Source of the DNA: an uncultured Acidimicrobiales bacterium
GTDB lineage: Bacteria; Actinomycetota; Acidimicrobiia; Acidimicrobiales; SZUA-35
Reading direction: 5' to 3'
Length of the DNA: 64,000 nt
Assembly: GCA_963775125.1 (NCBI GenBank)
Contig: CAVZHQ010000001.1
Span: 79,209-143,208 of the forward strand
The position numbers and the translations under genes are program-made. Under the pieces are notes generated by a model. The model worked only from the letters and a program-made list of their open reading frames with translations. It had not been told where the DNA came from and made no database searches. Shown here piece by piece: positions 1 through 59,676 of the stretch. Positions within the stretch are counted from its first letter, which is position 1, and each line of letters begins with the position of its first letter.

Positions 1-961
1 GGAAGAGCGGTTGGCCAGGGTCATGCCCGAGTGGGAGGGCGCCTTCTCGCTCGTCATCATCTCGGGCACGAAGGTCATCGCCGCTCGAGATCCCTGGGGC
101 TTCCGCCCGCTCTCGCTCGGCCGCCTGCCGAGCGGTGGGCATGCGGTCGCCTCGGAGACCGGGGCGCTGCGGACGCTTGGCTGCGATGCCATCAAGGAAA
201 TCGGTCCCGGTCAGATCGTCGTGCTCCAGGGCGATGTCGTCCGGACCTTGCAGGCGGTCTCGCCCAAGGAAAAACAGGCGAGGTGCACGTTCGAGCACAT
301 CTACTTCTCTCGACCCGACGCCGTGTGGGACGGCCTGTCGGTCCACCAGGTTCGCCAGCGTCTCGGCGAGGAACTCGCTCGCCAGCATCCGGTCGAAGCC
401 GACATCGTCGTGCCGGTTCCGGACTCCTCGGTGCCCGCCGCCATCGGCTATTCGGCGGTTTCCGGCATCGCCTACAACGAGGCGTTCGTCAAGAACCGGT
501 ACATCGGCCGCACGTTCATCGAGCCGACCGACGAGCTTCGCCGAAGCGGCGTCGCCCTCAAGTTCAACACGCTCGAGGACAACATTCGGGGCAAGCGTCT
601 GGTCGTCATCGACGATTCCATCGTCCGTGGCACCACGTCGGGTCCGCTGATTCGCATGCTGCGCGACGCGGGAGCCCTCGAGGTGCACGTGCGCATCACC
701 TGCCCCCCCATTGCCCACCCCTGCTTCTTCGGGGTCGACATGGGGACCTACGAGGAACTCATCGCCCATCAACTGTCGGTCGCCGAGATCAACGCGCACA
801 TCGGCTCGGACAGCCTCGGTTTCCTGGAACTCGAGCGCATGATGAAGGCCATTGGTCGCGACGATGGCTACTGCAATGCGTGTTTCACCGGAAGCTATCC
901 GGTGCCGGTTCAGCTTTCGCTGGCCACCAGCAAGCAACGATTCGATGGAGTTCTCGGGTGA
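1..961 (+). CDS. purF: amidophosphoribosyltransferase, C-terminal ~316 aa (5' end outside window)
   Basis: ORF 11..961 has PRTase motifs VVPVPDSS and LVVIDDSIVRGTT, and a C-terminal CFFGVD..CNACFTG. TGA 959-961 overlaps the next start (GTGA). Confidence 0.9.
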   Translation, partial: EERLARVMPEWEGAFSLVIISGTKVIAARDPWGFRPLSLGRLPSGGHAVASETGALRTLGCDAIKEIGPGQIVVLQGDVVRTLQAVSPKEKQARCTFEHIYFSRPDAVWDGLSVHQVRQRLGEELARQHPVEADIVVPVPDSSVPAAIGYSAVSGIAYNEAFVKNRYIGRTFIEPTDELRRSGVALKFNTLEDNIRGKRLVVIDDSIVRGTTSGPLIRMLRDAGALEVHVRITCPPIAHPCFFGVDMGTYEELIAHQLSVAEINAHIGSDSLGFLELERMMKAIGRDDGYCNACFTGSYPVPVQLSLATSKQRFDGVLG

Positions 962-3225: not shown

Positions 3226-3917
3226 TCGTCCCGCCGGCGGGTCGGGGCCGGGTGACGGTGTTGGTGTCCGGCAACGGCAGCAACCTGCAAGCCCTCATCG
3301 ACGCGGTGGCCGCCGGAACCCTCGATGCTTCGCTGGTCAGCGTCGTATCCAACCGCCCCGACGCGTTCGGACTGGTCCGAGCCCGTGAGAGCGGCATCCC
3401 GACGACGGTCGTCACGGTCGATGGCGACGACCGGTGCACCTACGATCGGCGTCTCGCCGAGGTCGTCGGCCTGACGGAGCCGGACATCGTCGTGCTGGCG
3501 GGCTGGATGCGCATCCTCACCATGGAGTTCCTCGGCCGCTTCCGCGTCGTCAACCTCCACCCGGCCAAGCCCGGCGCGTTCCCGGGAACGCACGCCATCG
3601 AACGGGCATTTGCCGCTTGGATGGCCGGCGAGATCGACGAATCCGGCGTGATGGTCCACTGGGTCCCCGACGAGGGCGTCGACTCGGGGCCTGTCATCGA
3701 GTCGACTGCGGTTCCCTTCGAGCCCGGCGACAGCCTGGAGGCCTTCGAGGCCCGAATGCACGGCGCCGAACACCGCCTTCTCGTGTCCGCCATCGGTCGC
3801 GCACTCGACACCGTCGCTCACCGGCCGAACACCCTCTGGCCGAACACGCTCTGGCCGAACACCCTCTGGCCTAACCTTTCATCATCCATCACGCCCGAGG
3901 AGACCGGTCTCGCATGA
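3222..3917 (+). CDS. purN: phosphoribosylglycinamide formyltransferase with C-terminal PNTLW x3 tail
   Basis: ATG 3222 overlaps the purD-purM stop (ATGA). Motifs VLVSGNGSNLQALID, LAGWMRIL, NLHPA. The stop overlaps the guaB ATG (ATGA 3914-3917). Confidence 0.85.
   Translation: MIVPPAGRGRVTVLVSGNGSNLQALIDAVAAGTLDASLVSVVSNRPDAFGLVRARESGIPTTVVTVDGDDRCTYDRRLAEVVGLTEPDIVVLAGWMRILTMEFLGRFRVVNLHPAKPGAFPGTHAIERAFAAWMAGEIDESGVMVHWVPDEGVDSGPVIESTAVPFEPGDSLEAFEARMHGAEHRLLVSAIGRALDTVAHRPNTLWPNTLWPNTLWPNLSSSITPEETGLA
3825..3875. repeat. 15-bp tandem repeat CCGAACACCCTCTGG x3 plus a partial copy, in frame in the purN 3' end
   Basis: Read directly. Units at 3825, 3840 and 3855, with one substitution in unit 2. 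Confidence 0.95.
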
Positions 3918-5416: not shown

Positions 5417-5458
5417 CGGTCACGCAGGACTGACCGTCACGCAGGACTGACCGTCACC
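5411..5458. repeat. 17-bp tandem repeat GACTGAC(G/C)GTCACGCAG x2.8 spanning the stop codons of two convergent genes
   Basis: Read directly. Contains the guaB TGA (5414-5416) and the minus-strand TGA (5439-5437). Confidence 0.9.
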
Positions 5459-7468
5459 CACGTGTCGTGGAACGCGGCGGAACCCCGGCCATCGGCGGGG
5501 ACCGTCGGGTTGGTGAGCGCGTTGACGCTCCGCCCCTGCTCGGTGTGCCGGTTCCACCAACCGAACGGCATCGACGCCAGACCCGGCTGCAGATCAGTGC
5601 TCAGCGCGGCAGTGACCGTGAGCGTGCCCCGCTCGTTGTGCACGACCACCCGAGACCCCTCGAGCACGCCGCGCGCTGTCGCATCGTCGGGATGCAGCTC
5701 GAGCCGAGGTTCGGCCGGGTCGGGCAAATGGGCCGGATCGCCACCGTAGTTGGCGTTCAAGAAGCGGAGATGCTGTTTGCGGCTGATGAGCATGAGCGGC
5801 TCGGACTCGCCCGCGGGGGTCGGCGCGGTCCCGGGACCGGGCGGGCGATGGGTCAGGGCGCCGAGATGGAGGCGGCCGTCGGTGGTCTCGGTCGGCGCAT
5901 CGACGTTGGGGCGGAAGCCGACCGGTACGCGCAGACGCTCCCAGCGGTGGGCGACCAATGATTCGAAAGTGATGCCGTCGAGCCACGGGTGACGGCTGTC
6001 GAGCAGCCCGCGAATGAGCTCCTCGTCGGACCGGGCCAGGAGCGGATCGGTCAGACCGAGTCGCTGGGCGAGAAGTCGGAAGATCTCGGTGTTCGGGCGG
6101 GCATCGCCGACCGGAGCGATTGCGCGGCTGGTTGAGCGAGAGGTAGAGGTGGCCCCACGAGATGCCGAGGTCGAGGTGTTCGAGCTGGGTGGTCGCCGGC
6201 AGGATGACGTCGGCGTAGCGCGCCGTGTCGGTCAGGAATTGCTCGATGACCACCGTGAAGAGGTCGTCCCGTTCGAGTCCGGCGATCACCTGGTTCTGGT
6301 CGGGACAGATGACCGCAGGGTTCGAGTTGTGGACGAACAGCAGATCGATCGGAGGGTCGAGGGTCGAGTTCGTCAGCACCTGGCCGAGCGCGGCCATGTT
6401 GAACCGCCGGCGCTGATCGTCGGTGGGCGGGGGAGCCGGGTAGTTGAGCGCCGTCTCGAAGTAGATCTGGGTGGAACGGGCAAGGCCACCGCCCGGGTCT
6501 CGCCATGCTCCGGTCAGCGCCGGCAGGATGGCGATCGCCCGCATGATCTCTTGACCGTTGGTCCGGTGTTCGGCACCGATGAGCGATCGCACTGCGGCCG
6601 GCCGTTCGGTGGCGAACCGACGGGCCAACCACTCGATCCGTTCCACCGAAATGCCCGTCTCTGCGGCGACTTGGTCGAGTGACAGGACGGCGGCCGACGC
6701 GACGAGTTCTTGCGACCCGGTGGCGTGTCCGTCGAGCCACTCGGGGTCGAGGAGGCCGTCGCGATGCAACACCTGCACCAAGCCGAGCACCAGGGCGACG
6801 TCACTGCCGGGTCGCACCTGGAAGAACTCGTCGGCTCGGGCGGCGGTCGGGGTGCGAACGGGGTCGACCACGATGACGCAAGCGCCACCTGCACGCGCCC
6901 GTTCGATCACGGGCCAGAGGTGCCGATTGGTGTGGTAGGTGTTGGTGCCCCACAGCACGATGGTCCGAGCTCGGTCCAAGTCCCATGGGTCGATCCCGAA
7001 CGGCTGGCCCGAGACCTCGGCCGCGCCGAGCCAGGCGGTGACACCGCAAAGGTGCCGGTGCACGTCGCTGCTCTGGAGTACCGAGAAGAATCGGTCGGCG
7101 ACGATGCCCTTCTGAATCACCCCCTGGGTGCCGTCGAACGAGTACGGCAAGATCCGCTCGGCGCGTCCCTCGTGCCGAAGTCCGTCGATACGGGCCGCCA
7201 CGAGGTCGAGCGCGTGCTCCCACGTGGTCTGCTCGAACCGCGCCGTGCCCTTCGGTCCGACACGGACCAACGGATGGAGGAGACGCTCGGGGTGGTAGAC
7301 CCGGTCGAGGTAGCGGTTGACCTTCGGACAGAGTTGGCCCTGGGTGGTGGGGTGGTCGGGGTCGCCTCTCAGCGAGACCGCTCGCCCGTTGTGGACCGTC
7401 ACGTTCCAGACGCAACTGTCCGGGCAGTCGTGGTGGCAGGATCCGGTGACCGTCAACGCCGGCGTCAA
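5437..7468 (-). pseudogene. molybdopterin (bis-MGD) oxidoreductase, frame broken by an apparent 1-nt insertion near 6118-6130
   Basis: The N-part lies in ORF 5594..7582 (CHHDCPDSC 4Fe-4S motif, ..ADVILPATTQLEH..SLNQP). The continuation AIAPVGDARPNTEIFRLLAQRLG.. is in the next frame and joins ORF 5437..5958 (MGD-binding C-domain). The span is 2032 nt, which is 3n+1. TTG start 7468 overlaps the upstream stop. Confidence 0.75.
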
Positions 7469-8187
7469 CCGAGGTTGCGGCGGAACAAACTGTGCAGCCG
7501 CTCCCAATGCCGTTCTGATGCCTCCTGCACGTACGACGGCCGCTCGGCGAAGGCGAACCCATGCTCGGTCCCGGGGTACCACTCGACTCGGCCGTTCGCG
7601 CCGGCATCAGCGATTGCGGCGCCGAAGGCTTCGACCATTTCCGGTGGAGCCCAGTGGTCGGACTCGGCGCAGCCAATGTAGATCTCGCCCGGGATCTGGC
7701 CCAGCCGGAGATGCGGCGAGTCATCAGCGTCGGTGATGAGCCTCACGCCGTGAATGGAGGCCGCAGCCTTCACCCGATCGGCGTGATCGGCCGCAACGAT
7801 CACGGTGAAGGGCCCACTCATGCAATACCCAACGGTGCCGCAGCGGCTTGCGTCCGCTGCTGGATCGGAGTCGGCGTACTCGAAGCACGCGCCGGCATCG
7901 GCCGATGCACGGGCGTTCGTCAGGTTCTCCATCAGTTCGAACATGCGATCGCGGTCGCCCGTCTCGAAGAGGTTGTACTCGCGCACATCGCGGTAGTAGA
8001 GCATCGGCAGCATCACGTAGTAGCCGGCACTCGCCAACCGCCGGCTCATGTTCCGCAGCTCTTCGCGCATGCCCGGCGCGTCCATCTGAAACAGCACCAC
8101 GGGGTGCGGGCCGTCCTCCTCGGGATGGACGATGAAGAGGGGCATGTCGCCATCGGGCGTCGTGAGGTCGAGGTGCTTTTCGATCAT
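7465..8187 (-). CDS. dienelactone hydrolase family protein
   Basis: ORF 7465..8187, 240 aa. Nucleophile motif VGYCMSG and C-terminal GTEHGF. Confidence 0.8.
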   Translation of the reverse strand: MIEKHLDLTTPDGDMPLFIVHPEEDGPHPVVLFQMDAPGMREELRNMSRRLASAGYYVMLPMLYYRDVREYNLFETGDRDRMFELMENLTNARASADAGACFEYADSDPAADASRCGTVGYCMSGPFTVIVAADHADRVKAAASIHGVRLITDADDSPHLRLGQIPGEIYIGCAESDHWAPPEMVEAFGAAIADAGANGRVEWYPGTEHGFAFAERPSYVQEASERHWERLHSLFRRNLG

Positions 8188-19980: not shown

Positions 19981-22900
19981 TCAGCCACCGGAAAAGTTGA
20001 ACCGGCCAACCGACGCGAATCGCAGGTCTCCGGCCTCCTCGTTCTTGACCACGGTGGGCTGCGCCCCGAGACATCGGCCGACGGCAACTCCCGACCCCGT
20101 CCATTCCCAGCACGCGGACAGATCGGTGGAGGTATTCGGTACGGCCATCGACAGGGAGGTGCCGGCGGGTGCACCCGTCAGCTGGGCCTCGAAACCGTCG
20201 TCCCATTGGCCGAGCGCCGCCGGGGGTCGGGTCCGTGCTTCGCCGAACACGTCGGACGAGTCGTCCCACGCCATGAAGTCGATCACGTCTCCATCGGTGT
20301 CGAGGAGCCACAGGTCGTCGCCGAAAGCATCGAGGACCGCCCAGGGTCGATTCGCCTCGTACGAAACGACACTCCCGGGTGCCGCGGGGAACGGCCCGCC
20401 GCCTGCGCTGCTGTCGGGATTGGTTGTCCAGACGATCACCGACTGTCCCGGGCCCAACATCACCGGGTCGAACGAGACCTGGAACGAGGTGTCGAAGGGG
20501 ATGATGGTGACCCAGAAGATGTCGTGGAGGCCGTCGACCGGGTCGAAGTCCTGGAGGCGTAGACCGTCGAGGGAGACGGGATCGCTGCTCACGTTGGTCA
20601 CCTCGATGAACTCATCGATCACGACGAACTGCTCGGACTCGGCGTACAACACCTCGGTGATGGCCAACGCGCCCGACAGACCCGATCGCCCGTACTCCGA
20701 GATCGTGAAGAGGAAGCTCGTGCTCGCCTCCGCGCCGGACGGATCGGCTACCACCAGGGTCACGGTGGACGAACTCCCCTTGGTCGACGGGTCGGCGTCA
20801 CCGGAGATGATTCCGGTGACGCCGTCGATCGAGAGCCCCGCCGGCAAACCGGTGGCGGTGAAGGTCAGCGTGTCGCCGTCTGAGTCAGAGGCCAACACCG
20901 CCAGCGAGAAGGGCACCCCGGCAGCGCCGGCCTGATCCGCCACGGCCTGGAGGACCGGTGTGTCGTTGACCCCGATGACCGTGACCGTGCCGGCACCGGC
21001 GCCGCAGAGCCCACCGGGATCGCACACCGTGTAGGTGAACGCTGCGGTCCCTACGAAGTCCGGTGGTGGCGTCCAAGTAGCCTCGGTCGTGCCGAACGTG
21101 ATCGTGCCGACAGCAAAGGTGATCCCGGTTGCCGTGAGTGGATCACCGTCGACATCGACGTCGTTGGCGGCCAACGATGCGTGGCCGATCGTCAGCGGCG
21201 TGTCCTCCAACGTGGCGAACGCGTCGGTTGCGGCCACCGGGGCGTCGTTCACCGGCGAGACGCTGATCACCCCAGTGGCCGAGGTACACAGTCCGAGTGG
21301 ATCACACGCGTCGTAGACGAAGGTGGCCGGGCCATGGAAGTTCGGCGGCGGAGTCCACACGAACGCGTCGGAATCGACGGTCAACGTCCCTGTGCCGAAC
21401 CTGAGGTCGGCAACGGTCAAGGCATCTCCGTCCGGGTCGCTGTCGTTGGCCGGCAGCGTGGCCAACAAGACGGTCACCGGCGTGTCCTCGGTTCCGGCCA
21501 CGAGGTCGTCCGCCGGAGTCGGCGGGTCGTTGACGGGAACAACCGCAATGGTGGCAACGGCAGGGCTGCAGGCAAGTGAGGGGTCACAGACTTCGTAGCC
21601 AACCGTCGCCGGGCCGTCGTAGTCGGTCGGCGGTGTCCACAAGTACCCGTCGGGGGTGGTGCGGCCGGTTCCGATACTGGAGGTCAGCCAGCGGATCGAC
21701 GGTCGGTCGCCGTCGGGATCCACGTCGTTTGCCAAAACCTGGGCGGTCAGCAGAACGAGGTCGACGTCCTCGTTGACCGAGTAGCTCTCGCCTGCAGCGA
21801 CGGGTGTGTCGTTGACGGCCAACACCGTAATGGTTGCGACGGCGGGGTCCGAACAGCCGACGGAAGGGTCACAGACGGTGTATTCGAACGTATCGGTTCC
21901 GTTGGCGTTCGGGTTCGAGGTGTAGATCGCAACCCGTTGGTGGCCGAGAGGGGCGCCGGCGGTTTCGCCTTGTCCGCTTGTCGCTGCGTCGCCCGGCGCC
22001 GCAGTCGCAGTGGCCGCGGTGAATCGGACCGAACCAAAGGATGGAGCTCGAGTAATGCTGAACACCGCCAGCCCTCCGTCGGTGGTCGCCTCGAGCGTGA
22101 CGGCGAGAGTGCTGTCCTCTGCGGTCGTGGCACGAACTGCGAACGCGGTCGGCCGAATGGGGGCGGCGGTGGTCGTCGTGGTCGAGGAGACCGTCGTTGG
22201 CGGGGTGGTCGTGCGGGGAATGGTGGTTGGTCCCACGCTCGTCGCGGGCCGTGCCGCCGTGGATGCTGTTGGCGGAAGGCTCGGAGCCGTCGTGGTCGGA
22301 GCCTGGGTCGTCGATGGTCCCTCGATGGTGATGACGGTGGTCGTTGGCTCTCCAAGCTCACCGCTCGTGGTGCTGGTGGTTGCGTTGCCGGTCGAGTTGA
22401 CGGAGGTCGTGGTCTCCTCGACGAAGGCCAGGGCCGGTGGCGGTTCCTCGGGCAGCAGGGCTCCCCCGAAGCCGCCGGTGACGAACGCCGCTCCGGCCGT
22501 CACCAGAGCGGTCACACCTGTGGCAAGCGGCGTGGCGACGGGGGCGAGGGGGACCTGGGACACGGCCGGCAGATTGGCGGCCCACGACAACGGTCCGATG
22601 GCCAGCCGGAGCCGGCCGATTCCGATGTTGAGGAAGGCGCGGGCGACGCGGGGGTCGAACTGGGTCCCGGCGCAGCGGGCAATCTCGGCTCGAGCGACAT
22701 CGGCCGGCATTGGCTTCTTGTAGGAACGGACCGACGTCATCACGTCGAAGGCGTCGGCCACGGCGACGATGCGGGCACCGAGGTGGATGTCATTGCCGGA
22801 CAACCCGAACGGATAGCCGTCGCCGTCCCATCGCTCGTGGTGCTGCGACACCGCGTTGTGCCACTCGCCGAGCCAGGGTTTCAGCGGGGCGATGAGCTTG

Positions 22901-23535
22901 TCTCCGGCCATCGGGTGAGTCTTGAGGATCTCCCATTCCGCGTCGGTTGGCCGACCGGTCTTGGTGAGGATCTCCTGGGGGACCATCAGCTTGCCGACGT
23001 CGTGCAGCAGCGACGACCAGCGGAGCTTGCTGGCCGACCGATCGTCCAGGCCCATCTCCTCGACGATGAGATCGGTGTAGGCCCGCACCCGTTCGCAGTG
23101 GCCGCGGGTCAGGCGATCGTGCACGCTGAGCGCGGCCACCATCTCGAGCATCGTGGTCGCGTAGTTGGCGTTCTGATTGAGCCGCCCTGACGCTTGGGCC
23201 TCCGCGACCCGTCGCTGGAGCTGACGGGTCGTCCCGGTCCGCAGCGCGGTCGAGAAGCGGTTCGGCGCCTGATCGGGGAAGATCAGAGACAGCTTGAACA
23301 AGGCCACGAGCGGGAGCATCCGCCGAGCGAGCGAATCCGAGGCGAGAAGCACGATCAGGCCGACGGCGAAGAGGCCGATCCACCACACGAAGACGTTGAG
23401 ACCCAGGGCGTGGGGCGGAAGCTTGCGGGCCAGAACGAAGGTGGCGACGAACGAAACCACCGTCGGAGCCAGGGTGATGAGTGCGCGGAATCGTCCAGGC
23501 CAGCGCGGGTCGGCTGGTCCAGTGAGATTCCTCAC
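19981..23535 (-). CDS. membrane HD-GYP domain protein with large extracellular cadherin-like / Ig-like / lamin-tail-like region (1184 aa)
   Basis: ORF 19981..23535. TM helices, then HDVGK..HHERWDGDGYP, another TM segment, a T/P-rich linker, about 4 repeats with NDxPVA..ANDxDxDGD, then FTATGLPAGLSIDGVTGIISG and ITEVLY..EFIEVTN. Confidence 0.8.
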   Translation of the reverse strand: MRNLTGPADPRWPGRFRALITLAPTVVSFVATFVLARKLPPHALGLNVFVWWIGLFAVGLIVLLASDSLARRMLPLVALFKLSLIFPDQAPNRFSTALRTGTTRQLQRRVAEAQASGRLNQNANYATTMLEMVAALSVHDRLTRGHCERVRAYTDLIVEEMGLDDRSASKLRWSSLLHDVGKLMVPQEILTKTGRPTDAEWEILKTHPMAGDKLIAPLKPWLGEWHNAVSQHHERWDGDGYPFGLSGNDIHLGARIVAVADAFDVMTSVRSYKKPMPADVARAEIARCAGTQFDPRVARAFLNIGIGRLRLAIGPLSWAANLPAVSQVPLAPVATPLATGVTALVTAGAAFVTGGFGGALLPEEPPPALAFVEETTTSVNSTGNATTSTTSGELGEPTTTVITIEGPSTTQAPTTTAPSLPPTASTAARPATSVGPTTIPRTTTPPTTVSSTTTTTAAPIRPTAFAVRATTAEDSTLAVTLEATTDGGLAVFSITRAPSFGSVRFTAATATAAPGDAATSGQGETAGAPLGHQRVAIYTSNPNANGTDTFEYTVCDPSVGCSDPAVATITVLAVNDTPVAAGESYSVNEDVDLVLLTAQVLANDVDPDGDRPSIRWLTSSIGTGRTTPDGYLWTPPTDYDGPATVGYEVCDPSLACSPAVATIAVVPVNDPPTPADDLVAGTEDTPVTVLLATLPANDSDPDGDALTVADLRFGTGTLTVDSDAFVWTPPPNFHGPATFVYDACDPLGLCTSATGVISVSPVNDAPVAATDAFATLEDTPLTIGHASLAANDVDVDGDPLTATGITFAVGTITFGTTEATWTPPPDFVGTAAFTYTVCDPGGLCGAGAGTVTVIGVNDTPVLQAVADQAGAAGVPFSLAVLASDSDGDTLTFTATGLPAGLSIDGVTGIISGDADPSTKGSSSTVTLVVADPSGAEASTSFLFTISEYGRSGLSGALAITEVLYAESEQFVVIDEFIEVTNVSSDPVSLDGLRLQDFDPVDGLHDIFWVTIIPFDTSFQVSFDPVMLGPGQSVIVWTTNPDSSAGGGPFPAAPGSVVSYEANRPWAVLDAFGDDLWLLDTDGDVIDFMAWDDSSDVFGEARTRPPAALGQWDDGFEAQLTGAPAGTSLSMAVPNTSTDLSACWEWTGSGVAVGRCLGAQPTVVKNEEAGDLRFASVGRFNFSGG

Positions 23536-47825: not shown

Positions 47826-47873
47826 TCGCTGAACCCGACCGCATTCTCCCGGACCGCCGGCGGAGCAGTGCTC

Positions 47874-48704
47874 ATGGACGGTAACCACCTGCGGGACACG
47901 CTGTTGGCCCGGCTGAAAGCGAAGGTCGAGGCCGCCGGATCGCCCGAGGTCTGCCTGGCTACCGTCTTGGTAGGTGAAGACAAGCCGAGCCAGATGTACG
48001 TGCGCATGAAGCAAAAGAAGGCGGTCGAGGCCGGCCTCACCTCTCGTCACGTCAGCATCGCGGGTGATGCCGGCCAGGCCGACATCGAAGCCGCCGTGCA
48101 AGGTCTGGTCGACGATCCAATGGTGCACGGCATTCTCGTTCAGCTGCCGTTGCCCGATGGCTTCGACGCGGAGGCAGTCCTCGCGTTGATCCCGCCGGAG
48201 AAGGACGTCGACGGTCTGACCGAGCGATCGCTCGGTCGGCTGGTGCGGGGGTTACCTGGCCATGCGCCGTGTACGCCGGTCGGCGTGATGCGACTGCTCG
48301 CGTACTACGGCATCCCGACCGTCGGCCGGCGCGCGGTCGTGGTCGGGCGCTCGACCCTGGTCGGTCTGCCCCAGGTTCTGCTGCTCGGGGCGAAGGGGGT
48401 CGATGCCACGGTGACGCTGGCGCACTCTCGGACCGTCGATCTGGCCGCGGTCACCAGGGAGGCCGACATTCTGGTGGCGGCTGCCGGCATGGGCGGGCTG
48501 ATCACCGCTCAGCACGTCAAGCCGGGCGCTGCAGTGTTCGACGTCGGTGTGTCTCGGACCGAGGCAGGTGTCGTTGGTGATGTCTGCTTCGACGAGGTCC
48601 AGGCGGTTGCCGGTGCCATCACCCCCATGCCGGGCGGCACCGGGCCGATGACGGTCGCCTGTTTGATGGAGAACACCTGGGCCGCGGCGCTGATGTTGGC
48701 GTGA
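47874..48704 (+). CDS. folD: bifunctional methylenetetrahydrofolate dehydrogenase / methenyl-THF cyclohydrolase
   Basis: ORF 47748..48704. The conserved domain starts at MDGNHL (ATG 47874). Motifs VLVGEDKPSQMYVRMK, VQLPLP and PMPGGTGPMT. An upstream start at 47748 would add 42 repeat-rich residues. Confidence 0.88.
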   Translation: MDGNHLRDTLLARLKAKVEAAGSPEVCLATVLVGEDKPSQMYVRMKQKKAVEAGLTSRHVSIAGDAGQADIEAAVQGLVDDPMVHGILVQLPLPDGFDAEAVLALIPPEKDVDGLTERSLGRLVRGLPGHAPCTPVGVMRLLAYYGIPTVGRRAVVVGRSTLVGLPQVLLLGAKGVDATVTLAHSRTVDLAAVTREADILVAAAGMGGLITAQHVKPGAAVFDVGVSRTEAGVVGDVCFDEVQAVAGAITPMPGGTGPMTVACLMENTWAAALMLA

Positions 48705-53364: not shown

Positions 53365-55075
53365 TTAGGACTTGGCTTCGGTGACCAGTCGGGTGACGTG
53401 GGCCGCAAGGTCGTCGAGGGGGACGTTGGTGGTTTCGCCGTTGCGGCGTTCGGTGACCTCGACCTCGCCGTTGGCCAGACCCTTGGGGCCGACGGTGACT
53501 CGGAACGGGATGCCCACCAGTTCGGCGTCGGCGAACTTGACGCCGGGGCGGGCGTCACGGTCGTCGAGGATCACGTCGACGCGGGCTTGACGGAGCTCGC
53601 TGATAGAGCCGCTCGCCGACGGCCATGCTCTCGTCGTCGACTCGCATGAGGGTGATGACCACCTCGAACGGGGCGATGGACGTGGGCCAGATGATGCCCT
53701 TGTCATCGTGGTTGGCCTCGACCGAGGCCGCCATGTTGCGACCGACGCCGATGCCGTAGCTGCCCATCACCACTGGGATCTGCTTGCCGTCGGGAGAGAG
53801 GACCATGACGCCGAACTTCTCGGCATACCCCGTACCGAGCTTGAAGATGTGGCCGATCTCGATGCAGCGAACGATGTCGATGGGGGTCTGGCAGTTGGGG
53901 CAGGCCTCGCCGGCCGAGACCTCGCGGAGGTCGGCCCACTGGGTGACCTGGAGGTCACGATCGACGTCGACGCCCCGCAGGTGCCAGTCGTCGTCGTTGG
54001 CACCCGTGGTCATGTTGGTCCGGCCCCGTAGGGCCTCGTCGATGATGACGGGGTGGTTGGTGACCCCGACAGCGCCGAGGCTGCCGGGGTTGGCGCCGAG
54101 CGCGGCAAGGGCTTCTTCGGGTTCGCCGGCGCGGACCTGGACGGCCCCTGTTGCGTCGAGGAGCTTCTGGATGTTCAGCTGATGGTCACCCCGGACGACC
54201 GCCAAGGTGATGGTCCCGTCGACCACCATGACGAGCGTCTTGAGCTGGCGATCGGCCGAAGCTCCGCCGTCGAAGGTCTCGAGGGCAGCGATGGTACGAA
54301 CGCCGGGGGTGGCGAACCGTTCGGGTGCCGCGGGGCCGGTCTCATCGACCACTGCGGGCAGGTACGAGGTGGCCTTCTCGATGTTGGCGGCGTAGCCACA
54401 TGATGGGCACATGGCGACGTCGTCTTCGCCGGCGTCGGACGGGGTCATGAACTCGACCGAGGAGTTGCCGCCCATGGCGCCCGAGCTGGCCTCGACGCCG
54501 AACGACGGAACGCCGATGCGTTCGAAAATTCTCCGGTAGGCACGGTCGTGGTTGTCGAACTGGACGTCGAGGCCGGCCCAATCGACGTCGAAGCTGTAGG
54601 AGTCCTTCATGGCGAACTCTCGCACCCGGAGCAGCCCGGACTTGGGCCGAGCTTCGTCGCGGAATTTGGTCTGGATGTGGTACCAGAGCTGCGGGAGTTG
54701 CTTGTACGACGACAACTCGGCGGCGACGGTGGCGAAGATCTCCTCGTGAGTGATGCCCAGTGCGTTGTCGTTGCCCTTGCGGTCGACCAGGCGGAACATG
54801 ATCTCGCCCATCGTGTCCCAGCGCCCCGACTGCTGCCAGATCTCGGCGGGATGCATGGTCGGAAGAGAGAACTCCTGCCCGCCGATGGCGTCGATCTCTT
54901 CGCGGATGATCTGGGAGATCTTCTGATGGACTCGCCAACCCATCGGCAGCATCGAGTAGTGCCCCGCGTGGAGCTGGCGGATGAATCCGCCACGCACGAG
55001 CAGCCGGTGGCTGGCCGCGACCGCGTCGTTGGGGGCATCGCGGAGAGTGGGGACGAACATCTGGGACCAACGCAT
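53365..55075 (-). CDS. proS: proline-tRNA ligase (bacterial type with INS editing domain); frame broken by an apparent 1-nt insertion near 53599-53605
   Basis: ORF 53555..55075 (..[13 protein letters not shown]) continues as [32 protein letters not shown].. in ORF 53365..53706. The span is 1711 nt, which is 3n+1. Confidence 0.9.
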
Positions 55076-55136: not shown

Positions 55137-57090
55137 ATGGCCACCTCGTCTCTTCCCCGGAACCGCCTCTCCACCGTCCGGCCGCGACTCACCACCCCGC
55201 TGCTCCGCGTCGACGGTGAACTTCGGCCGGCGTCGTGGGACGCGGCGCTCAGTCGGGTCGCCGACGGCTTCACCGCCGTCAAGGAACAGCACGGGCCGTC
55301 TGCGTTCGCCTTGTTCTCCTGTTCCAAGAGCACCAACGAGATGAACTACGCGGCCCAGAAGTTCAGCCGTCTGGCGTTGGGGTCGAACAACATCGACTCC
55401 TGCAACCGCACTTGACACGCTCCCAGCGTCGTCGGTCTGGCGACAGTGTTCGGTGCCGGTGGCGGTACCTGCTCCTATGAGGAGGTGGAGGAGGCTGACG
55501 TCATCCTCCTGTGGGGGTCCAACGCCCGCGAGGCCCACCCCATCTACTTCCACCATGTACTGAAAGCGCTCGACAAGGGCGGCCGGATGTACGCGGTCGA
55601 TCCTCGGCGCACCTCGTCGGCCAAGTTCGCCGACGTCTGGTTGGGACTGAACCTCGGGGCCGACGTCGCGTTGGCCAACACCATGGCCAATCACATCATC
55701 GGCCAGGGCCTGGTGAACCAGGCGTTCATCGATCACTCCACGGCTGGTTACGAGGCGTTCAAAGCAGCGGTCGCCCGCTACACCCTCGAGCGCGGCGCCG
55801 AGCTCACCGGGCTGCCGGCGTCGGTCATCGCCGAGATGGCCGAGGCCTATGCCACCGCCGGCTCGGCCCAGATCCTGTGGACCCTGGGCATCACCGAGCA
55901 CCACAACGCGGTCGACAACGTCGTTGCCCTGTGCAACCTGGCGCTGCTCACGGGCCATGTCGGCCGGTGGGGAAGCGGGCTGGTTCCGCTCCGGGGCCAG
56001 AACAACGTGCAGGGCGGCGGCGACATGGGCGCTCTGCCCAACAAGCTTCCGGGCTTCGCCGACATCGATGATCCGTCGGCTCGCGCCCGGTTCGCCGCGG
56101 TGTGGGGCGCGGAGGTTCCGCCCGACCCGGGCCTGCACCTCACGCTCATGTTCGAGGCCATGGAGGCCGGAACCATCCGGGCGGCCTACATCCTGGGGGA
56201 GAACCCCGCGGACTCCGAGGCCGACGTCGCCCATGCCCGCAAGCTGCTGGCCGGACTCGACCTCCTCGTCGTCCAGGACATCTTCCTCACCCGCACCGCC
56301 GAGCTGGCCGACGTGGTGCTTCCCGCGTCGGTGGGCTGGGCCGAGTGCGAGGGCACGGTCACCTCGTCGGAACGGCGGGTACAACGGGTGCGCCCGGCGG
56401 TTCCTCCGCCGGGCGAGGCTCGCCACGACCACGAGATTCTCGGCGAGTTGGCGCGCCGCATGGGCGTCGACTGGGGAGACCCCTCGCCCCAGGACCTCTG
56501 GAACGAAGTGCGATCGTTGTCTCCCCTCCACGCGGGGATGTCCTACGAACGACTCGAGACCGAGGGAGGGCTGCAGTGGCCGTGCCCCGATCTCGATCAT
56601 CCCGGATCCCCCTTCCTGCATGGCTGGCTGTGGGAGGCCGATCTCGGCGGTCGGCCCCCGGCACCGTTCTCGGTGGTCGAGCACGCGGGCCCGAAGGAAG
56701 AGCTCTCCGAGCAGTTCCCCCTGCGACTCACCACCGGCCGGGCCCTCGACTCGTACAACACCGGCGTCCAGTCCGGCTCGCTCGACGCCCCGATCCGCTA
56801 CGGCGATGCCATCGACGTGAACCCCCTCGACGCGTCCGCCCTCCAGGTGGTCGACGGGGAGCGCGTGCGGGTCAGCTCGCCCCGGGGCTCGGTCGAGATG
56901 CCGGTACGCGTGCAACCGGACCTGCCGGTCGGCCTCACCTTCACCACGTTCCACTTCCCCGAACTCGTCGACCTCAACGTGCTCACCAATCCCGGAATGG
57001 GATCCTCGATCCGGAACCTCGGAGTTCAAGGCTGCCGCCATTCGGATCGACAAGTTGGATCCGTCCATCGCAGGCGTGCCCCGTGTCTGA
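55137..57090 (+). CDS. fdhA: formate dehydrogenase catalytic (Mo/W-bisPGD) subunit lacking the N-terminal Fe-S domains; Sec (UGA) at 55413-55415; apparent 1-nt insertion near 56996
   Basis: ATG 55137. ..NIDSCNRT-TGA-HAPSVVGLATVFGAGG.. joins ORF 54981..55415 to ORF 55446..57137 in frame. The C-terminus WDPRSGTSEFKAAAIRIDKL..V-TGA (57088-57090) is in the next frame. The span is 1954 nt, which is 3n+1. Confidence 0.85.
55413..55444 (+). promoter_or_regulatory. UGA-Sec codon plus candidate SECIS hairpin GUCGUC-GGUCU-GGCGAC (55428-55444)
   Basis: Read directly. There are 12 nt between the UGA and the stem, and the apical GGUCU is formed by the conserved Gly-Leu codons. Confidence 0.7.
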
Positions 57091-58852
57091 CCTGCACTTC
57101 ACCGCCGATCAGGCGTCGCCGGACGAGCAGGCGGTGATCGATGCCGTCCTGGCCGGGCTCGGAACCGACCCCGCCACCAGCGCAGAGGGCGAACGGGTCG
57201 TGCGGGGCGGAGTTCGCCGCCGAAACGAGCGTCGCCACGTGCTGTTGCCGGGGTTGCACGGATTGCAGCGAGCCTCGGGCTGGATCACGCCCGGAGGGCT
57301 CAACTACCTCTGCGCCCAGCTCGGGGTTCCACCGGCGGAGGCGTACGGGGTCGCCTCGTTCTACGACCTGTTCCGCACCGAGGACCCTGGTCACACCGAT
57401 TCGGTCCACCACGTCTGCATCGACGCGGCGTGCCAGATTGCCGGCGCCGACGACCGAATCGCCGAACTGGAAGCGGCCGGCCATCACGTGCATCGCAGCC
57501 CGTGCCTCGGCCAGTGCGAGCGGCCGGTCGCAGTCTTCGTCCAAGGGCGAGGTCGTGAGGACGCGGTCCCGATCGATGAGTCGGAGCCCACGGGATCAGG
57601 CAGTATTCCGCAGCGGTACGATCCCTCGCTCGTCCTGCTGGCTCGGGTCGGACGGGTCGAACCCACCTCGCTCGAGTCCTACGTCGGCGCCGGTGGCTAC
57701 AAGGCCCTGGCCAAGGCATTCACGCGGGGCGCCGGCGGCGTGATCGACGAGATCCTCGCGTCGGGCCTCAGCGGGCGTGGCGGCGCTGCATTCCCGACCG
57801 GCGTCAAACTGCGGGCGGTCGCCGCCGAGCCTGGCCCCCGCTACGTGGTGGCCAACGCCGACGAGTCCGAGCCGGGAACCTTCAAGGACCGGATCGTGAT
57901 GGAGAACGATCCGTTCGCCGTGATCGAGGCCCTGACCATCGCCGGCTTTGCCGTGGGCGCAAGCAAGGGCTGGATCTACATCCGGGGCGAGTACCCGCTG
58001 GCGACCCGGCGGCTGCAGGGAGCAATCGACGCTGCCCGCGAGGCGGGCTTTCTCGGTGAACGCATCGCCCGGTCGTCGTTCTCGTTCGACATCGAGATCC
58101 GTCGGGGGGCCGGCGCCTACATCTGTGGCGAGGAGACGGCGCTGTTCAACTCACTCGAGGGTTTCCGGGGCGAGCCTCGCCAGAAACCTCCGTTCCCGAC
58201 GACCCACGGTCTGTTCGGTCGTCCGACTGCGGTGAACAACCCGGAGACACTGCTCAACCTGCTCGAGATCGTCACCAACGGTGGAGACGCCTACGCGGCC
58301 ATCGGGACCGAGGGATCGAAGGGGCGCAAGCTGTTCTGCGTGTCGGGCAACGTGAAGACGCCGGGACTCTACGAAGTGCCGTTCGGGCCCACCCTCCGAG
58401 ACATCCTCGACCTCGCCGGCGGGGTCGACGGCGAGTTGCAGGCGGTTCTGCTCGGCGGTGCCGCCGGCTCGTTCGTCACGCCCGACCAACTCGACGTCCC
58501 CTTGACCTTCGAGGGCACCCGGGCGGCGGGACTCTCGCTGGGTTCAGGCGTCGTCATGGCCTTCAACCGATCGGTCGATCTGGCCGCGGTGGTGACCCGC
58601 ATCGCCGAGTTCTTCCGGGACGAATCCTGCGGACAATGCGTGCCATGCCGAGTCGGTGCGGTCCGCCAACACGAGCTCCTCGTCCGAACCGGCACCCGAC
58701 TCACCCCACCCGACCTCGTGCTGCTCGACGACATGGACCGGGCCATGAAGGACGCGTCCATCTGTGGTCTCGGCCACACGGCGTGCACCGCCGTCCGTTC
58801 GGCGTTGTCGCTCGGGCTCCTCGAAACACCTGCCAACGGAGGCCCGCAATGA
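57083..58852 (+). CDS. NuoE-like (2Fe-2S) fused to NuoF-like (FMN/NAD, 4Fe-4S) diaphorase subunit of NAD-dependent formate dehydrogenase
   Basis: In-frame part of ORF 56102..58852 from GTG 57083. NuoE Cys motif region (CIDAAC..CLGQC). NuoF motifs GRGGAAFPTG, ESEPGTFKDR and ESCGQCVPCR. Confidence 0.85.
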   Translation: MSDLHFTADQASPDEQAVIDAVLAGLGTDPATSAEGERVVRGGVRRRNERRHVLLPGLHGLQRASGWITPGGLNYLCAQLGVPPAEAYGVASFYDLFRTEDPGHTDSVHHVCIDAACQIAGADDRIAELEAAGHHVHRSPCLGQCERPVAVFVQGRGREDAVPIDESEPTGSGSIPQRYDPSLVLLARVGRVEPTSLESYVGAGGYKALAKAFTRGAGGVIDEILASGLSGRGGAAFPTGVKLRAVAAEPGPRYVVANADESEPGTFKDRIVMENDPFAVIEALTIAGFAVGASKGWIYIRGEYPLATRRLQGAIDAAREAGFLGERIARSSFSFDIEIRRGAGAYICGEETALFNSLEGFRGEPRQKPPFPTTHGLFGRPTAVNNPETLLNLLEIVTNGGDAYAAIGTEGSKGRKLFCVSGNVKTPGLYEVPFGPTLRDILDLAGGVDGELQAVLLGGAAGSFVTPDQLDVPLTFEGTRAAGLSLGSGVVMAFNRSVDLAAVVTRIAEFFRDESCGQCVPCRVGAVRQHELLVRTGTRLTPPDLVLLDDMDRAMKDASICGLGHTACTAVRSALSLGLLETPANGGPQ

Positions 58853-59676
58853 CCGACATCACCCTCACGGTCGACGGCCGAACGGTCACCGCCGAACCGG
58901 GTCAGACGATCCTCGAGGCGTGCAACAACGAGGGCATCGAGACCCCGACGCTCTGCTGGGCCGCCAACCTCACCCCGGTGAACGTCTGCCGGGTCTGCGT
59001 GGTCGAAGTCGCGGGCTCGCGAACCCTCGTCCCTGCATGCTCCCGTCCGGTCGAGGAGGGCATGGAGGTCCTCACCGACTCCGACCGGGTTCGTCACAGC
59101 CGCAAGATGGTGCTCGAGTTCCTCGGTTCGGGTGTCGATCTGTCGCAGGCAGAAGCACTCCAGGGGTGGGCCGACCACTACGGCGCCGAACCCGGCCGCT
59201 ACGTCGAGCCGCAGACCATGAACGAGGAGGTGAAGATCCAGGACAACCTCTACATCCGTGACTACGACAAGTGCGTGCTGTGTTACAAGTGCGTCGAGGC
59301 GTGTGGCGACGACGCGCAGCACACCTTCGCGATCGCCGTGTCCGGTCGAGGGTTCGGGGCAAGGATCTCCACCGAGTTCGATGTCGCCCTGCCCGAATCG
59401 GCCTGCGTCTACTGCGGCAACTGCGTGGGTGTCTGCCCGACGGGAGCGCTGCAGTTCACGACCGAGTTCGATCTGCGAACGGCCGGCAACTGGCGGCCGG
59501 AGACACAAACGGTCACCCGGACGGTGTGTTCCTATTGCGGCGTCGGCTGCAACCTGGAGCTGCACGTCCAGGACGAGACGATCGTGAAGGTGACCTCGCC
59601 CGCAGATCACTCGGTGACGTCGGGGCACCTGTGCATCAAGGGACGCTTCGGCTGGAACTACGTCCAGCCGATGTGA
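58849..59676 (+). CDS. NuoG/FdhA N-terminal Fe-S module (2Fe-2S, 4Fe-4S ferredoxins, Mo-enzyme 4Fe-4S domain) encoded as a separate protein
   Basis: In-frame part of ORF 58636..59676 from ATG 58849 (ATGA overlap). Motifs CRVCVVEV, CVLCYKCVEAC, CVYCGNCVGVCP and CSYCGVGC..HLCIKGRFGWNYVQ. Confidence 0.85.
   Translation: MTDITLTVDGRTVTAEPGQTILEACNNEGIETPTLCWAANLTPVNVCRVCVVEVAGSRTLVPACSRPVEEGMEVLTDSDRVRHSRKMVLEFLGSGVDLSQAEALQGWADHYGAEPGRYVEPQTMNEEVKIQDNLYIRDYDKCVLCYKCVEACGDDAQHTFAIAVSGRGFGARISTEFDVALPESACVYCGNCVGVCPTGALQFTTEFDLRTAGNWRPETQTVTRTVCSYCGVGCNLELHVQDETIVKVTSPADHSVTSGHLCIKGRFGWNYVQPM

Follow-up and report, generated by a model that had tools for sequence, protein, structure and literature searches.

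A probable NAD(H)-linked formate dehydrogenase with a split alpha subunit and a conserved three-gene layout

Domain matches and alignments indicate that three adjoining genes in the 64-kb stretch of DNA analysed here (the window) encode a formate dehydrogenase with a split alpha subunit and a shuffled gene order, and that this arrangement is real and not an assembly error. Shared by at least 80 bacterial species, it is a conserved enzyme variant, of which no description was found in the literature. The enzyme is, by its predicted proteins, of the kind of FdsABG and Methylorubrum extorquens FDH1, but made of three polypeptides in place of an unsplit alpha subunit plus diaphorase. The locus probably encodes an FDH1-like cytoplasmic NAD(H)-linked, selenocysteine (Sec)-dependent Mo/W-bisPGD enzyme, with the features collected in Table 1.

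Table 1. Features of the three-gene operon and their positions in the window.
Feature	Position	Strand	Description
Catalytic subunit gene	55137..57090	+	Mo/W-bisPGD formate dehydrogenase domains I-IV, without FS0 4Fe-4S domain
In-frame UGA, read as Sec93, beside His94	55413..55415	+	Motif CNRT-TGA-HAPSVVGL
SECIS apical hairpin	55428..55444	+	Stems 55428-55433 / 55439-55444, loop GGUCU 55434-55438
Frameshift site, one extra G	56994..56995	+	MAFFT alignment to L001, three-frame translation
NuoE-NuoF fusion, diaphorase subunit, 589 aa	57083..58852	+	[2Fe-2S] thioredoxin-like domain, FMN/NAD(H) site, [4Fe-4S]
Fe-S subunit, 275 aa	58849..59676	+	[2Fe-2S], two ferredoxin-type [4Fe-4S], Mo-enzyme FS0 [4Fe-4S] domain

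Gene order, domains and site of the cut

The operon runs from the catalytic gene through the NuoE-NuoF fusion to the Fe-S gene, with an overlap of 8 nt (GTGTCTGA, 57083-57090) between the first two and of 4 nt (ATGA, 58849-58852) between the last two. The initial annotation had described a NAD-type, NuoEFG-related formate dehydrogenase with this order and with coupling by overlapping stop and start codons; the Pfam and NCBIfam domains with the alignments to solved chains, the positions with the Pfam domains, and the two overlaps, respectively, bear these claims out.

In the Fe-S protein, Pfam places Fer2_4 at residues 3-78, ferredoxin-type Fer4 motifs (Fer4_7) at 136-201 and Molybdop_Fe4S4 at 221-273, with the conserved Lys of the FS0 domain found in CIKGRFG. 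The closest solved matches are 9wxb_B (8.4e-42) and 6tg9_A (2.7e-39). Residues 4-272 align to Rhodobacter capsulatus FdsA 25-303 and residues 13-637 of the catalytic protein to FdsA 304-931, which puts the cut at FdsA 303/304, directly past the Mo-enzyme 4Fe-4S domain as had been proposed; the cut is seamless, with the two alpha pieces collinear with unsplit FdsA and zero residues lost. A His-ligated 4Fe-4S cluster domain (NADH-G_4Fe-4S_3) had also been expected in this protein, but neither Pfam nor the alignment recovered it, and GSGVDLSQ stands where HPLDCxxCxxxGxC would be expected; the other domains proposed for profile searching, namely Fer2_4, Molybdop_Fe4S4, Molybdopterin and Molydop_binding, were all found. 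All 81 Fe-S orthologues have 16-19 Cys and are without the His-cluster motif. The missing cluster would be dispensable, since cluster A4 of the R. capsulatus enzyme (His117/Cys121/124/130) is off-pathway, at the dimer interface (PMC7171172), and the M. extorquens FDH1 (MeFDH1) alpha subunit contains only three 4Fe-4S and one 2Fe-2S (PMC10869683).

The fusion protein contains 2Fe-2S_thioredx, Complex1_51K, SLBB and NADH_4Fe-4S in Pfam and nuoF_fam (4e-124) in NCBIfam, and carries the motifs CxxxxC...CxxxC, GRGGAAFPTG, ADESEPGTFKDR and CGQCVPC...C, with residues 18-574 matching the whole length of the beta subunit of MeFDH1 (7e5z_B) in the alignment. The catalytic protein, about 650 aa long with the TGA translated as Sec and one G removed, matches Molybdopterin (17-440, 2.2e-70) and Molydop_binding (529-633, 1.1e-22), while Pfam found no Fe4S4 domain in it; it carries the Sec-His...Arg active-site motifs and the bisPGD domains. 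Its TIGR01591 (Fdh-alpha) match reaches 631.6 bits over profile positions 51-672, the score being shared between the two alpha pieces (631.6 + 55.3 bits, cutoff 666.25), and its closest solved chains are HDCR FdhF 7qv7_S, E. coli FdhH 1aa6, MeFDH1 7vw6_A and, over 304-931, R. capsulatus FdsA 6tg9_A. The assignment of 55137..57090 as the catalytic part therefore stands as regards its domains but not as an intact reading frame, with an in-frame TGA and a 1-nt insertion in its 1954 nt, which are not a multiple of 3.

The inserted base is one of two G at 56994-56995; the window reads CCCGGAATGG there, whereas the relative L001, at 89% identity, has CCC-GAGTGG. Past the insertion the true catalytic C-terminus (EWDPRSGTSEFKAAAIRIDKL...) falls in another frame; none of 80 related loci is broken at this site. 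The extra G is most likely an assembly indel and not biology, judging from the window's ProRS gene and second MopB (molybdoenzyme) gene, which are frameshifted as well; L001 has both ProRS and the catalytic C-terminus intact. It is unlikely that the locus in this genome is a decaying pseudogene with a real extra G, whose catalytic subunit would lose its last ~35 residues and with them the conserved C-terminal strand of the cap domain, PEFK...R(I/V). Besides the frameshift itself, the absence of the catalytic product from the protein database, beside a 100%-identical entry for the adjoining Fe-S protein, fits a depositor pipeline flagging a pseudogene. However, two more genes in the 64 kb are frame-broken, including the essential ProRS, which points to assembly indels; the remaining operon is intact, with cofactor ligands, UGA and SECIS conserved, and the coding alignment to L001 has no gaps outside the one inserted G.

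Comparison with known enzymes and proposed electron path

The tungsten enzyme FDH1 (FoDH1) of M. extorquens AM1 (PDB 7E5Z, 7VW6, 8J83) resembles the window enzyme in its bisPGD, its three [4Fe-4S] and one [2Fe-2S] on the alpha side without a His-ligated cluster, and its single NuoE-NuoF fusion beta subunit with FMN, [4Fe-4S] and off-path [2Fe-2S] (PMC10869683), with 7vw6_A aligning to the window's catalytic and Fe-S proteins over 372-979 and 70-340, respectively. However, FDH1 alpha is one 989-aa chain with an active-site Cys, whereas the window has two chains cut past FS0 and a predicted Sec; the window operon differs in starting with the catalytic gene, and its metal would be Mo or W. The NAD+-dependent Mo-formate dehydrogenases FdsABG(D) of R. 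capsulatus and Cupriavidus necator (PDB 6TG9, 6TGA, 9WXB) provide the closest solved Fe-S match, are collinear and share the NuoEFG-like wire to FMN and NAD, but their FdsA is unsplit, uses Cys386 and holds the His117-ligated A4 cluster that is deleted here, FdsG and FdsB are separate where E and F are fused in the window, and the gene order also differs. FdsD is required in that system, and no gene resembling it was seen beside the window operon.

E. coli FdhF (FDH-H) has the same Sec-His motif and SECIS loop, and the window catalytic protein aligns to FdhH 57-688, but FdhF has an FS0 domain of its own (residues 1-56) and passes its electrons to hydrogenase 3, whereas the window catalytic protein has no FS0 and is predicted to feed a NuoEF-type diaphorase. 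In the HoxFU diaphorase module of NAD+-reducing [NiFe] hydrogenases, a NuoE-NuoF fusion and a small HoxU-type Fe-S protein apart from the catalytic subunit occur as in the window. Among the NCBIfam matches of the Fe-S protein, HoxU ranks second (1.1e-42, residues 3-202), but at 146 bits it lies far below the cutoff of 333; in addition, the window protein adds Molybdop_Fe4S4 and is without the His-ligated cluster, and its partner is a molybdoenzyme instead of a hydrogenase. Formylmethanofuran dehydrogenase FwdB/FwdD offers an earlier case of a MopB enzyme, similar to formate dehydrogenases, that is built from two polypeptides; in M. wolfeii an additional subunit takes the place of the FdsA C-terminus (Radon et al.), though that split takes off the C-terminal cap (Molydop_binding), whereas the cut here takes off the N-terminal FS0 and everything upstream.

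The Fe-S protein would dock onto the catalytic protein and rebuild the alpha fold within a three-protein complex. Electrons would then pass from Mo/W through FS0, two 4Fe-4S clusters and the 2Fe-2S to the NuoF 4Fe-4S, FMN and NAD+, with the separate HoxU/NuoG-N-terminal-like protein holding the proximal FS0 [4Fe-4S], the two ferredoxin-type [4Fe-4S] and the [2Fe-2S], and the fusion holding [4Fe-4S], FMN, the NAD site and the off-path [2Fe-2S]. The probable role is the conversion of formate to CO2 with NADH formation, and it may be tied to folate C1 metabolism, given that relatives have FTHFS, FolD and FdhD beside the operon (FdhD in 19 loci, FTHFS in 9); in the window, FolD lies at 47868-48701.

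Another partner or direction appears improbable, whether specificity for NADP, CO2 reduction to supply a reductive folate/glycine route, or flavin-based electron bifurcation of the Bfu type that also draws on ferredoxin. Among solved structures, Bfu-type HydB/NfnB subunits score best against the NuoF part, and the nearest relatives with a fused alpha subunit (L083), whose 637-aa NuoF has additional Fer4 domains, adjoin FolD-FTHFS-FdhD; the FTHFS genes beside the split operon are compatible with either direction. However, the fusion protein stops directly past the N3-type 4Fe-4S motif, with no Fer4 domain in Pfam, and does not have the additional ferredoxin clusters seen in NuoF of the L083 type; over its full length it matches the beta subunit of MeFDH1, an enzyme that does not bifurcate, and most carriers belong to lineages of aerobic heterotrophs.

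The selenocysteine codon and its SECIS element

From comparison of related loci, the UGA at 55413 is a selenocysteine codon and the catalytic gene a selenoprotein gene with an fdhF-type SECIS, because 63 of 64 loci have TGA here and one, in Streptomyces sp. NBS 14/10, has TGC (Cys), and a hairpin with an invariant GGUCU loop follows at the fdhF distance. The codon, never TAA or TAG in these loci, corresponds in the alignment to Sec140 in E. coli FdhF. Across 62 distinct sequences, 99.5% of cells in the two stems are paired, with a CG-to-GC compensatory change via synonymous sites in 4 sequences, and the loop and its fourfold-degenerate sites are invariant; counted from the U of UGA, the loop occupies nt 22-26, the identical spacing in E. 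coli fdhF. The Cys homologue has lost two of the six stem pairs. Rfam gave no SECIS match, the permissive threshold included, neither selA, selB, selC, selD and fdhD nor any tRNA was found in the window, and tRNA-Sec was not found within 8 kb of 60 related loci.

It is highly improbable that the UGA is a true stop and that the catalytic part consists of two peptides (92 aa and ~547 aa), the reading given by public gene callers. Such callers regularly give ~540-560 aa products beginning past the UGA, and no Sec machinery was found in the window, but the UGA falls exactly at the catalytic Cys/Sec position, the reading frame is preserved on both sides of it, and the codon counts, the canonically spaced SECIS with its compensatory changes and the missing stem pairs of the Cys homologue all argue against termination.

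Conservation of the layout across species

The split Fe-S protein was present in 80 of 80 species-level loci from species-representative genomes, thus in at least 80 bacterial species of many phyla, although the phylum labels of some MAG loci may be binning errors. The order of catalytic, fusion and Fe-S genes, scored only where the locus was long enough, recurred in every related locus with enough upstream sequence, and in the 80 loci the Fe-S protein ends 5-49 residues past its CxKGRF motif. By this comparison the arrangement is far beyond chance, since it is present in every related locus examined. No unsplit fdsGBA-type locus was found among the 80 relatives, in support of the split; the clean fission and changed order are real, but they are shared by a widespread family and do not reflect an event particular to this genome.

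A misassembly or recent rearrangement that joined unrelated pieces at 57090 and 58849, with the small indel errors of the window as its sole support, is practically ruled out by the independent assemblies of the 80 species, among them closed chromosomes (OY759762.1, OZ252099.1) and cultured strains, and by the identical 8-nt and 4-nt overlaps in L001. The simplest reading is a single origin of the split layout, for example through tandem duplication of an EF-alpha operon and subsequent loss of its outer parts, after which the layout would have spread together with the cassette. In the protein database, the Fe-S protein matches more than 120 clusters, with lengths of 275-320 aa and identities of 75-100%.

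Domain organization of the three-gene operon

Three genes, all running in one direction, were found at 55137-59676, and the table provides their coordinates and domains together with those of the other genes of the window mentioned in this study.

Genes of the formate dehydrogenase (FDH) operon and other genes of the window
Gene or product	Position	Strand	Domains
Catalytic gene	55137-57090	+	Molybdopterin, Molydop_binding (Pfam); Fe4S4 domain absent
NuoE-NuoF fusion, 589 aa	57083-58852	+	2Fe-2S_thioredx, Complex1_51K, SLBB, NADH_4Fe-4S (Pfam)
Fe-S protein, 275 aa	58849-59676	+	Fer2_4, ferredoxin-type 4Fe-4S motifs, Molybdop_Fe4S4 (Pfam)
PurD-PurM, one 755-aa ORF	958-3914	+	TIGR00877 (residues 1-417), TIGR00878 (residues 423-748)
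Second molybdopterin oxidoreductase	5437-7582	-	Fe4S4 and Molybdopterin in frame 5597-7582, Molydop_binding in overlapping frame 5440-6231
1159-aa protein	19984-23460	-	HD/HD_5 phosphohydrolase, cadherin-like, Big_9 and lamin-tail domains
FolD (methylene-THF dehydrogenase/cyclohydrolase)	47868-48701	+	
Prolyl-tRNA synthetase	53365-55075	-	

Pfam and NCBIfam searches placed the catalytic, NuoE-NuoF and Fe-S domains on three separate products, in agreement with the division described in the initial annotation. The catalytic protein (PF00384, E-value 2.2e-70; PF01568, 1.1e-22) contains both the active-site motif CNRT-U-HAPSV, aligned with U140-H141 of E. coli FdhF, and the conserved Arg motif LRGQNNVQG. 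It matches the NCBIfam profile TIGR01591 (formate dehydrogenase alpha) from profile position 51 on with 631.6 bits, while positions 1-49 correspond to the last 49 residues of the Fe-S protein (55.3 bits). Alone, the catalytic protein stays below the curated equivalog cutoff of 666.25 bits, which the two scores together would exceed, though only as a rough addition. The Mo-enzyme [4Fe-4S] domain nearest the bisPGD active site (FS0, CxxCxxxC...C) and its conserved Lys are not on the bisPGD polypeptide, as Molybdop_Fe4S4 and the motif CIKGRFG sit on the 275-aa Fe-S protein. The alpha subunit is not one polypeptide but two ORFs with the NuoE-NuoF gene between them. We know of no other Mo/W-bisPGD enzyme in which FS0 is supplied in trans.

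Alignment to solved structures revealed that residues 4-272 of the Fe-S protein correspond to residues 25-303 of FdsA, the unsplit alpha subunit of the NAD-linked FDH of Rhodobacter capsulatus, and residues 13-637 of the catalytic protein to residues 304-931. The two parts are collinear with FdsA and cut seamlessly at 303/304, and therefore the central observation made earlier, that the alpha subunit is divided at a domain boundary, is correct. The proposed coupling of the genes through overlapping stop and start codons was likewise found, as GTGTCTGA at 57083-57090 between the catalytic and NuoE-NuoF genes, and as ATGA at 58849-58852 between the latter and the Fe-S gene.

The Fe-S protein resembles the N-terminal part of NuoG, with Fer2_4, Fer4_7 / Fer4_Nqo3 and Molybdop_Fe4S4, so that one [2Fe-2S] cluster and two [4Fe-4S] clusters of ferredoxin type lead up to FS0; it missed the HoxU (NF005745) cutoff with 146.1 against 333 bits. 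NADH-G_4Fe-4S_3 (PF10588) had also been expected in this protein, but no Pfam match to it was obtained, and GSGVDLSQ stands in place of the FdsA segment HPLDCxxCxxxGxC. The NuoE-NuoF fusion contains PF01512, PF10589 and PF01257, with visible ligand motifs for the FMN/NAD sites, an N3-type [4Fe-4S] and a NuoE-like [2Fe-2S], and aligns over its full length to 7e5z_B. No Fer4 domain was detected on it by Pfam.

Distribution of the split family and frame breaks in the window

At least 600 relatives were recovered when one genome was scanned for each species, and the best 80 of these (56-77% identity) were analysed. They include Acidimicrobiia, Actinomycetes, Acidobacteriota (closed Bryobacterales chromosomes among them), Chloroflexota, Planctomycetota, Gemmatimonadota, Eremiobacterota and others, with some phylum labels, such as 'Micrarchaeaceae archaeon', probably being binning errors. 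Cultured carriers occur among the Actinomycetes, namely Actinomycetospora rhizophila and Streptomyces sp. NBS 14/10, the latter with a Cys form. Among these best 80 of at least 600 relatives, every locus with sufficient upstream sequence has the order catalytic gene, NuoE-NuoF, Fe-S gene, so that the gene order reported in the initial annotation recurs wherever the locus is long enough, and comparison with relatives, where an unsplit fdsGBA-type order had been named as the contrary outcome, revealed the split in all 81 copies. In 81/81 copies, the Fe-S ORF ends 5-49 residues past CxKGRF and encodes 16-19 Cys, and the His-cluster motif is absent from all 81 orthologues. The split is not peculiar to this genome, and misassembly as the source of the split or of the order is excluded by the same end of the Fe-S ORF in all copies and the same order wherever visible.

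Database clusters of the Fe-S protein itself with 75-100% identity number more than 120, almost all measuring 275-320 aa and one 392 aa. In a 50%-identity representative library, complete full-coverage matches of the split type were found at 50-64% identity, most rows in this range being fragments. The next tier, at ≤44% identity, comprises unsplit alphas (770-1400 aa) or N-terminal fragments of such alphas ending at the Sec codon; L083, the locus checked as a case of the unsplit tier, is arranged FolD-FTHFS-FdhD-NuoE-NuoF-alpha, FTHFS being formate-tetrahydrofolate ligase. The cut and the new order could have arisen in one step, by tandem duplication of an operon of NuoE-NuoF and alpha followed by loss of the outer NuoE-NuoF-FeS and catalytic parts. 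Searches of the flanks (E≤1) recovered no Fe-S fragments upstream of the catalytic gene and no catalytic fragments downstream of the Fe-S gene as relics of such a duplication.

Three related loci showed separate peculiarities. The alpha gene of L082 (P0260; 1202-3942), which is of the Cys type, also lacks the His-ligated cluster and appears as two ORFs in unpermuted order, was considered as an unpermuted split and rejected, as a three-frame reading revealed a fused Cys-type alpha in which the frame changes directly after RLTVPL. A frameshift in a fused gene is the probable explanation. In the Streptomyces sp. NBS 14/10 locus (L061, 6028-8001), the only one of Cys type, the NuoE-NuoF gene matches that of the window over residues 3-154 only, at 38% identity, suggesting a replacement or a far stronger divergence of its diaphorase subunit. 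On an Eremiobacterota chromosome (L043, 3156-3255), some 1 kb upstream of its catalytic gene, ARAGORN reported a 'tRNA-Pro(tgg)' of 100 nt, an unusual length for a tRNA.

The catalytic gene of the window had been placed at 55137-57090, but this span of 1954 nt is indivisible by three and contains an in-frame TGA as well as a frame change. The latter occurs near 56994, from where the +1 frame encodes the conserved C-terminus (EWDPRSGTSEFKAAAIRIDKLDPS...) and holds the stop at 57088-57090, and alignment with the 89%-identical relative L001 (GCA_038256755.1) revealed one extra G in the window (CCCGGAATGG vs CCC-GAGTGG). The same alignment revealed a 1-nt insertion near 53603 in the prolyl-tRNA synthetase gene, the anticodon-binding C-terminus of which lies in another frame; the L001 gene is intact (564 aa). 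A third apparent frameshift is found in the second molybdopterin oxidoreductase, whose best NCBIfam matches are far under the cutoffs. A genuine extra G at 56994-56995 would make the catalytic gene a pseudogene in this strain, while an assembly error would imply a true sequence of CCCGAATGG within 56985-57000. With three frame breaks in the 64 kb, including one in an essential gene, assembly indels are a more likely cause than decay, and the FDH locus is a normal member of the family, its one defect probably being an assembly indel. The GC3 threshold of >0.80 applied in the frameshift census loses many genes, including the NuoE-NuoF and Fe-S genes.

Selenocysteine codon and SECIS hairpin

The in-frame TGA at 55413-55415 lies within CNRT-TGA-HAPSVVGL, at the active-site Cys/Sec position. 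This codon is TGA in 63 of the 64 related loci covering the site and TGC in one (L061), and the reading frame is kept downstream, as tblastn HSPs span the site. Complete genomes with the TGA form include OY759762.1, OZ252099.1 and NZ_JBHSKG01. A SECIS hairpin was identified with a 6-bp stem, pairing nt 16-21 with nt 27-32 (numbered with the U of the UGA as nt 1), and an invariant GGUCU loop. GGUCU likewise occupies nt 22-26 in E. coli fdhF, counted from the UGA, with loop and spacing identical to those of the family.

Across 62 distinct sequences, 99.5% of the hairpin cells are paired; the helix was derived from the same sequences on which it was scored, and the slide control is therefore favourable by construction. 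In four sequences, one stem pair is G-C instead of C-G as a result of compensatory changes that are synonymous, and two more pairs change on one side only and remain standard (U-A/U-G and U-G/C-G/U-A). No variation is seen at the fourfold-degenerate sites of the loop and the closing pair, while other third positions in the alignment vary freely, and two of the six stem pairs are lost in the Cys homologue. The hairpin is evident only in the 63-sequence comparison: as a single sequence, the 68 nt following the UGA gave an MFE that did not surpass that of shuffled sequences (z = -0.06). Rfam returned no SECIS or other family for the whole window at the gathering threshold or for 55380-55520 at E≤10. 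ARAGORN detected no tRNA-Sec in either the window or 60 related loci, and no selA, selB, selC or selD was found in the 64-kb window or within 8 kb of the 60 loci.

Predicted enzyme, its setting and other genes of the window

The operon is predicted from its domains to encode a formate:NAD+ oxidoreductase of the FdsABG / MeFDH1 type. In FDH1 of Methylorubrum extorquens (MeFDH1; 7e5z, 7vw6), the alpha side carries bisPGD, three 4Fe-4S and one 2Fe-2S, the same cofactor set as the window enzyme, and the beta subunit is a fused NuoE-NuoF with FMN, one 4Fe-4S and an off-path 2Fe-2S, with which the window fusion aligns end to end; the His-ligated cluster is absent there too (PMC10869683). FdsA differs from the window family in being unsplit and in having this His-ligated cluster, A4, which in the R. 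capsulatus enzyme is located at the dimer interface and is not part of the Mo-to-FMN path (PMC7171172). Since A4 is also missing in MeFDH1, it defines the Fds subtype only. The FDH1-like cofactor set, the end-to-end match of the fusion and the off-path position of A4 point to a heterotrimer, where docking of the Fe-S protein on the catalytic protein would restore the alpha fold and electrons would pass from Mo/W through FS0, two 4Fe-4S, the 2Fe-2S, the NuoF 4Fe-4S and FMN to NAD+. The division may let the Sec- and Moco-containing subunit mature before docking. FwdB/FwdD provide a precedent for a divided FDH-like MopB enzyme (PMC7171172), but there the split is at the opposite end of the polypeptide.

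The reverse direction of catalysis may also occur, and NAD-linked Sec-containing enzymes of aerobes are candidates for CO2-to-formate catalysis. An electron-bifurcating enzyme is unlikely, because the fusion lacks the extra ferredoxin-type clusters that bifurcating Bfu-type, HydABC-like enzymes carry on the NuoF-like subunit, and which are present as Fer4 domains on the 637-aa NuoF of L083, the nearest fused-alpha relative checked. Oxidation of formate made by folate C1 metabolism fits as the role of the enzyme. FdhD adjoins the operon in 19 related loci and FTHFS in nine. The operons of relatives are flanked directly by FolD, FTHFS and FdhD; FolD of the window lies 6.4 kb upstream of the operon, and neither FdhD nor FTHFS was found within the 64-kb window.

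Public gene callers break the catalytic gene at the UGA and report a product of ~545 aa, and databases name the products only generically ('formate dehydrogenase subunit alpha', '2Fe-2S iron-sulfur cluster-binding protein'). The family is thus systematically mis-annotated, and metagenomic surveys are likely to miss or mis-score FDH in abundant soil, freshwater and marine lineages, so that the capacity of Acidimicrobiia, Acidobacteriota, Chloroflexota and further soil and marine groups to oxidize formate may be under-counted. Literature searches on split, HoxU-like or NuoG-like FDH, on Acidimicrobiia FDH and on FdsABG fission did not find this architecture, which is weak evidence with subscription journals mostly outside the coverage. 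We tentatively propose, at somewhat less than even confidence, that the family is a widespread, apparently undescribed class of Sec-dependent NAD-linked FDH of aerobic lineages, with FS0 and the conserved Lys in trans from a HoxU-like subunit. If the three proteins form one enzyme, the FS0 domain may sit on another polypeptide than the cofactor it serves, which would bear on the folding, Moco receipt and wiring of Mo/W-bisPGD enzymes; the family is a natural split system with cultured carriers, of interest mainly to enzymology and the annotation of environmental genomes.

Elsewhere in the window, the PurD-PurM ORF is coupled to a following PurN gene by overlapping stop and start codons at 3222, and may represent either a true fusion or an artefact of an indel in this error-prone assembly. 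The same order, GARS-AIRS(-GART), is known in eukaryotes.
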